Part shown: in pieces, positions 33,078 to 33,777 of the stretch
Layout: each line of letters opens with the position of its first letter
How positions within the stretch are numbered: position 1 is the first letter of the stretch
Assembly (NCBI GenBank): GCA_964016885.1
Contig: OZ024765.1
Coordinates: forward strand, 23,374,001-23,438,000
Source: Eledone cirrhosa
Lineage: Eukaryota
Reading direction: 5' to 3'
DNA: 64,000 nucleotides
The notes under the pieces: model-generated
What the model saw: the letters and a program-made list of their open reading frames with translations, nothing else
The model's database searches: none
What the model was told of the DNA's origin: nothing
Program-made: the position numbers and the translations under genes

Positions 33078-33777
33078 GCAATATTTACCCATCTTCCGGC
33101 TGAGCTGACACTCACTGTAAAGTGTAAAGTGTCTAGTGAAAAGCTGAGTACATGTACATATGTATACATGTGTGTATTTATATGCATACTAATACTTCCG
33201 TATACATATGTAGATGTACACTTTAACTTAATTGTTTAAGCGTCAGTCATACAAAAGTGAGTTAGAAGCGAAACGAAATTTAATTTCGTTTCGTTATTTG
33301 TTTTTATCGTTTCCGCTGAACCGGTGCGTACAATGACTCACGTTCTATGCAAATTAGTCTACCCACTACTAATTTTCATAGAAAAAGCATATAACGATAT
33401 GTGCTTTTACAATTCTCCAGAGAAGCCGGAAGATGGGTAAATATTGCTGATGAGATGTAATAACATCGAAACTAGTCCAATATTCCTGTCTGGCCCTCTG
33501 GAGAATAGAGGAAATGTGTTTCCTTGAAAACTCGTATGACTCTAAAACCCGGTCCGCCTGTGTGGTTACATACAGACTAGCTGACACTCACTGTAAAGTG
33601 TCTAGTGAAAAGCTGAGTACATGTACATATGTATACATGTGTGTATTTATATGCATACTAATACTTCCGTATACATATGTAGATGTACACTTTAACTTAA
33701 TTGTTTAAGCGTCAGTCATACAAAAGTGAGTTAGAAGCGAAACGAAATTTAATTTCGTTTCGTTATTTGTTTTTATA
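33078..33777 (+). mobile_element. Retrozyme-like non-coding element (family 7): about 200-bp direct repeats around an HHR segment
   Basis: 33103-33307 repeated at 33579-33777; 33078-33101 is an inverted copy of 33424-33447. Confidence 0.75.
33440..33484 (+). ncRNA. Canonical minimal type I hammerhead ribozyme (family 7)
   Basis: AATATTG-CTGATGA-GATGT aata ACATC-GAAA-CTAG-TC-CAATATT; perfect stems, palindromic ACTAGT stem III, GUC triplet. Confidence 0.92.

Follow-up and report, generated by a model that had tools for sequence, protein, structure and literature searches.

Animal non-LTR retrozymes were defined in PMC7229834, where circular RNAs are described from coral, mussel and axolotl and Penelope-like elements (PLEs) are named as candidates for their mobilisation. 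A later study (10.64898/2026.07.22.740005) reports that retrozymes and PLEs co-occur and share terminal-repeat homology, although such homology with a coding PLE was seen in 24 of 57 Xenopus families and is not required. In print, both the enzyme that moves animal retrozymes and the question of the circle have been argued from co-occurrence and terminal-repeat homology. As for PLEs themselves, their "tail" is the stretch between two internal start sites of reverse transcription; the machinery cuts and extends both target strands, and its enzyme is predicted to be a dimer (PMC11167929).

We analysed a 64,000-nt stretch of Eledone cirrhosa DNA (hereafter the window), which contains a copy of a 469-nt hammerhead element, together with its relatives in the 3.0-Gb genome. 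This element is likely a new member of the animal non-LTR retrozymes. Like the members described in PMC7229834 and 10.64898/2026.07.22.740005, it has a tandem unit that is non-coding, highly self-paired and below 50% GC and carries one type I hammerhead; its target duplications exceed 4 bp, and coding PLEs occur in the same genome. Its 469-nt unit is slightly longer than the 150-450 bp given in PMC7229834 and falls within the 51-972 bp of 10.64898/2026.07.22.740005. Circular RNAs are reported for the members from coral, mussel and axolotl; for the present element a circle is a possibility. Its insertions also resemble those of PLEs (PMC8557442, PMC3846280, PMC11167929) in having an inverted 5' arm, a one-sided tail, two fixed 3' ends, AT-rich or microsatellite targets and target duplications of about 9-16 bp, but the element has no ORF, and its tail measures about 70-75 nt, against 30-40 nt in the published PLE insertions. 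The MRC1-like elements of Chlamys are likewise non-autonomous and form multicopy head-to-tail inserts moved by PLEs; unlike the present element, they have autonomous partners with which they hold 3' sequence in common, and their clade lacks canonical hammerheads (PMC8557442).

The insertion junctions provide a line of evidence independent of the published arguments, namely, a protein-free element that bears the Penelope-specific two-site signature. The word "tail" does not occur in the main texts of PMC7229834 and 10.64898/2026.07.22.740005, nor do these texts mention inverted insertions, and we found no report of tails or paired ends in retrozymes in a search that covered open-access papers and, for the two studies, their main texts. 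Junction evidence for Penelope mobilisation of retrozymes therefore appears to be new relative to the literature that we found. Our main reading, to which we assign a probability of roughly 55%, is that the non-coding 469-nt unit is copied in trans by a Penelope-like reverse transcriptase (RT) into AT-rich DNA, possibly from a circular monomer.

The window copy, its hammerhead and its family

The window copy (Table 1) is flanked by (TA)n tracts on both sides. An earlier sequence-only reading had described it as a repeat, a unique segment with a hammerhead, and the same repeat again, with a period of about 476 nt. The arrangement holds (direct repeat 33103-33307 / 33579-33776), but the unit is 469 nt long; the period is 476 nt only upstream of a local 7-nt duplication in the first repeat, which is private to the window copy and explains the longer value. 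The same reading noted a 24-nt inverted cap that halts at the hammerhead core. The cap does halt there, but it is not a designed feature, since its outer end is non-standard, as is one outer end in four of the 37 two-armed loci analysed below, the window copy included. We propose that the window copy consists of a 1.44-unit arm primed at site A and a stunted second arm. The hairpin noted near the end of each repeat is present in both, and a credible ORF is indeed absent, the longest stop-to-stop frame in a natural array being 84 codons. As the window copy carries a single hammerhead, no monomer could be released from it.

Table 1. Positions of the features of the window copy (numbered from the first base of the window)
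Feature	Position	Strand	Remark
(TA)n-type microsatellite, left flank	32883..33077		target
24-nt inverted arm	33078..33101	-	exact reverse complement of 33424-33447; halts at core C3; putative stunted second arm, outer end not at site B
Sense arm	33103..33777	+	675 nt, 1.44 units of the 469-nt non-coding unit; 37% GC
11-bp hairpin in the tail, first copy	33269..33293	+	
Extended helix I round the hammerhead	33412..33506	+	outer arms 33412-33422 / 33496-33506
Type I hammerhead motif	33440..33484	+	core at 33447; predicted cut 33477/33478
Site B (unit 224-231 from the cut)	33701..33708	+	putative reverse-transcription start; window copy does not end here
11-bp hairpin in the tail, second copy	33738..33762	+	
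Site A (unit 295-300 from the cut)	33772..33777	+	3' end of the window copy; putative reverse-transcription start
(TA)n-type microsatellite, right flank	33778..33992		target

A motif scan, RNA folding and covariation agree on the textbook hammerhead that had been read from the sequence. Stem I has 7 bp (33440-33446/33478-33484) and continues, as had been noticed, into a long helix whose outer arms pair; stem II has 5 bp, the palindromic stem III has 2 bp, and the core is intact, so that the cut site is predicted from the motif. A scan of the whole window with Rfam returned no match at the gathering score; the hammerhead call thus rests on the three lines above. The hammerhead region folds with z = -4.3 (none of 200 shuffles equals it), the tail region with z = -5.8, and the unit folded as a circle with z = -9.0 (60 shuffles). 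Among five relatives, which are few and related sequences, 7 of the 19 hammerhead pairs have changed on both sides, and 91% of the cells pair, compared with 33-48% when the partners are slid. The earlier suggestion that a palindromic minimal stem III permits dimeric cleavage is in agreement with PMC4209133, according to which a palindromic helix III allows hammerheads to cleave as dimers. In a cofold of two copies, the lowest-energy structure was not the catalytic dimer.

Exact matches to a 38-nt hammerhead sequence number 1,386 in the genome, whereas a reversed control has none, so the copy number is far above chance expectation. The best-scoring copies are 98-100% identical, and the family is very young. 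Its copies are dispersed tandem inserts of up to about 50 units, mostly in (TA)n, in which every unit carries a hammerhead at a spacing of 469 nt (unit GC 0.37). Target duplications of 9-16 bp can be seen at sites other than pure (TA)n. The direct repeats are partial tandems rather than true LTRs, which animal non-LTR retrozymes lack along with a PBS and a PPT. A tRNA scan returned no hits. In a listing of sequencing runs, 5 of the 24 entries contain at least half of the element's words; they bear three organism labels, and none is listed as RNA.

A conserved octamer at 33347 suggested an snRNA-type promoter as in newt satellite 2. We rejected this candidate because the regions upstream of the host U1/U2 genes mostly have no octamer and the unit scores like shuffles (its best score is -1.6, whereas 8 of 9 left-out host promoters score 15-30). 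These host upstream regions (L224-L276) share short motifs near -90, -58 and -255.

A second retrozyme family, with a unit of about 511 nt, an internal variable (TA)n and a 59-nt tail, is 72% identical to the first and yielded 469 search candidates (L101 7719-9001 and L111-L140). At one locus (L352 4247-4290), the main family and a 92%-identical subfamily are joined at the tail hairpin.

Paired insertion ends and probable Penelope-type mobilisation

We mapped the ends of 56 records, of which five were removed (two duplicates, two with empty flanks and one array interior), leaving 51 loci. Numbered from the predicted hammerhead cut, the outer ends cluster at two sites about 70 nt apart, A (295-300) and B (224-231). 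Among the 37 two-armed loci, A is paired with B in 32, and in one more with substitutions next to both ends; no A/A or B/B insert was found among them. The remaining 14 of the 51 loci are one-armed (nine A and five B). Although our main homology search favoured A ends, such a bias would raise A/A rather than A/B pairs. The pairing recurs in 16 unseen loci held out from the first 100 position-ordered rows of the 1,386 hammerhead matches: 11 of these are two-armed, of which 10 are A/B and one, fused to a neighbour, is ambiguous, while five show one arm. It also recurs in the 92%-identical subfamily (8 of 9 two-armed loci) and in the 511-nt family (13 of 16; two loci look like exceptions, and one end is internal), and even the largest mapped array, of about 49.5 units, ends A/B.

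These A/B-paired ends are the tail signature of Penelope-like elements. The sequence-only reading had asked whether start points are circularly permuted or form tandem arrays; tandem arrays were found, but the 3' ends are fixed at A and B rather than permuted. It had also held that fixed ends attached to a coding PLE, combined with the absence of a monomer or circular RNA, would speak against it. The ends are fixed, but no coding element adjoins the copies that we examined, and for this reason the fixed 3' ends do not refute the involvement of a PLE. Its proposal of more-than-unit-length reverse transcription by PLE machinery is supported by the tandem and inverted 5' arms, the two fixed ends, the (TA)n targets and the 9-16-bp duplications, and Penelope-type mobilisation of the element is very probable. 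Coding Penelope-like families of the same genome (RT in all five frames scanned, GIY-YIG in four of the five) likewise end at two sites in (TA)n, with tails of 39, 44 and 66 nt, and another hammerhead-bearing end of Penelope type has a tail of 57 nt. The strict A/B pairing differs from the in vitro behaviour of the Penelope-like element PAc, whose start sites showed no difference between the strands (PMC11167929). The pairing is a concrete prediction that could be put to the in vitro system already established for Penelope, for which the 469-nt RNA would serve as a minimal substrate.

Two apparent features of the inner ends were discarded. A breakpoint hot spot, located at unit 404-416 and including the inner end of the window copy's cap, holds 9 of the 88 ends against 2.4 expected (p = 0.12 after scan correction), and the query of the main search probably produced the pile-up seen at unit 75-105. 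At three loci (L145, L147 and L154), inversion junctions or inner ends are filled by short repeated slips of nearby unit sequence. The Penelope-type ends at L091, L099 and L174, with tails of 66 and 57 nt, exceed the 30-40 bp in print, and an abundant coding Penelope-like family (L195-L223) has many open frames of at least 900 codons.

Circular or linear template

In the mechanism that we favour, tandem arrays would be transcribed, two hammerheads would pair via the palindromic stem III and then cut, and a host ligase would close the monomer. The helper protein would nick both target strands; in a single event, site A would be the start of one cDNA and site B that of the other. The two would vary in length, often exceeding one unit, and repair would join them head to head. 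Very long arrays would grow later through DNA-level duplication.

We lean slightly towards a circular RNA as the template. Of the 88 arms, 68 are longer than one unit and 12 longer than four, although our searches favour long arms. None of the 88 inner ends lies within 4 nt of the ribozyme cut (1.5 expected if uniform), so the usual template is something other than cleaved linear RNA. The junctions across the cut site are exact in 199 of 205 cases, and the other six contain substitutions; no indels were seen. Fixation within a locus was seen for seven private variants, five of which occur in all units that cover them in the two arms; at L151, a private variant is present in 10 of 10 units. Full units differ by 1.6 within loci and by 2.9 between loci, in a comparison whose unit split divided four units of L167 wrongly. 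Fixation of a variant in both arms is consistent with a template of one unit, possibly a circle. Reads that span the cut site cannot reveal a circle, because tandem copies in the genome contain this junction too.

The same Penelope-like helper and two-site priming could instead act on a linear, uncleaved multimer transcribed from a tandem array, with no circle needed and the hammerhead either weak or serving another step. We regard this as a serious alternative, though clearly the less probable one. Variants present in only some units of a locus number 26, and three of them (at L143, L146 and L166) lie in the first-copied unit of both arms; such in-register partial variants fit a linear multimer. 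Arrays of about 50 units are available as sources, and the long arrays contain periodic DNA-level duplications, with and without hammerhead changes, so that homogeneous source arrays could arise without a circle; crossing-over of a 1.4-mer could also build a uniform source array. Unprocessed RNA is the main substrate of PAc, whose hammerhead is dispensable (PMC11167929), hammerheads with a short helix III cleave poorly (PMC4209133), and 8 of 9 Xenopus retrozyme dimers stayed uncleaved in vitro (10.64898/2026.07.22.740005). On the other hand, the variants fixed across both arms require a single-unit bottleneck somewhere. Moreover, in the short insert L341 units of 453 and 471 nt alternate strictly, with the core change C3U in every second hammerhead, as expected from a cleavage-defined dimer; this is one case, which we estimate would arise by chance about one time in five.

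A second giant array, of at least 26 kb (L360-L362; G000 C1, from 95.62 Mb), begins at site B and has one end in view; multi-unit variant patterns recur in it.

The putative helper and its relation to coding elements

No frame with RT and GIY-YIG is present in the 469-nt element. The genome contains 10,596 GIY-YIG candidates, of which 150 were scored. Among 100 records around GIY-YIG/RT hits, blastn and nhmmer found no coding element with a homologous terminal repeat, and searches with the GIY-YIG family and RT proteins, together with these two programs, yielded only separate neighbours that lie in the same (TA)n tracts; related retrozymes beside coding elements are separate insertions in common tracts of this kind. 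A tail-only search of the genome gave no candidates and is uninformative.

One locus (L277 2152-5889) may be a chimera in which a retrozyme A arm is joined to the B arm of a coding Penelope-like element. Its retrozyme part, an A arm of 2.7 units plus 41 bases, directly adjoins 2.4 kb of a family-C coding element, which ends at its own B site. This is what the A/B rule would give in a single chimeric event, but two neighbouring insertions that later lost the DNA between them would look identical, and we treat the locus as a lead only. L157 was rejected as a second chimera, since 150 unrelated bases lie between its parts and the partner ends at its own A site; look-alikes of chimeras thus exist. 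L277 and L341 are the two inserts behind a more specific and tentative version of the main reading, in which a dimeric Penelope-like enzyme would carry out rolling-circle reverse transcription of a hammerhead-cleaved circle, the two strands being obligately primed at different sites and the helper having no sequence likeness to the element. We consider this version possible, but less probable than the linear multimer.

The unit could also be the terminal repeat of an as yet unseen coding Penelope-like element, the short copies being truncated ends and the arrays products of later unequal crossing-over. Such a route has been proposed for vertebrate retrozymes (10.64898/2026.07.22.740005), DNA-level expansion is visible in the arrays, and about 70 loci were inspected against 1,386 hammerhead copies. 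Nevertheless, 68 of the 88 arms, followed upstream of the 3' end, run into another unit and never into an ORF, none of the 16 position-ordered loci is joined to an ORF, and the multimeric state of both inverted arms is unexplained by crossing-over; we therefore consider this origin improbable. Mobilisation by an APE-type LINE, with inversions arising through twin priming, has many LINE ORFs near the window copy and the known twin priming of L1 in its favour, but it is very improbable, since priming by chance microhomology would not yield a second fixed site, the element has no poly(A) or LINE-like 3' tail, and the two-site ends match those of the Penelope-like families of the same genome.

LINE ORFs at 9901-13101, 28079-31201 and 40809-43253 of the window encode an RT followed by a PHD finger, with an APE domain in the first two. 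The window also contains a different hammerhead family, with a long stem II and an AT-rich palindromic stem III, as an inverted pair at 2229 (+) and 3353 (-); the pair is likely a Penelope-type mini-insertion, and its hammerhead motif recurs at many loci. Finally, a 527-aa frame at 51630-53213 on the minus strand contains tandem C2H2 zinc fingers.
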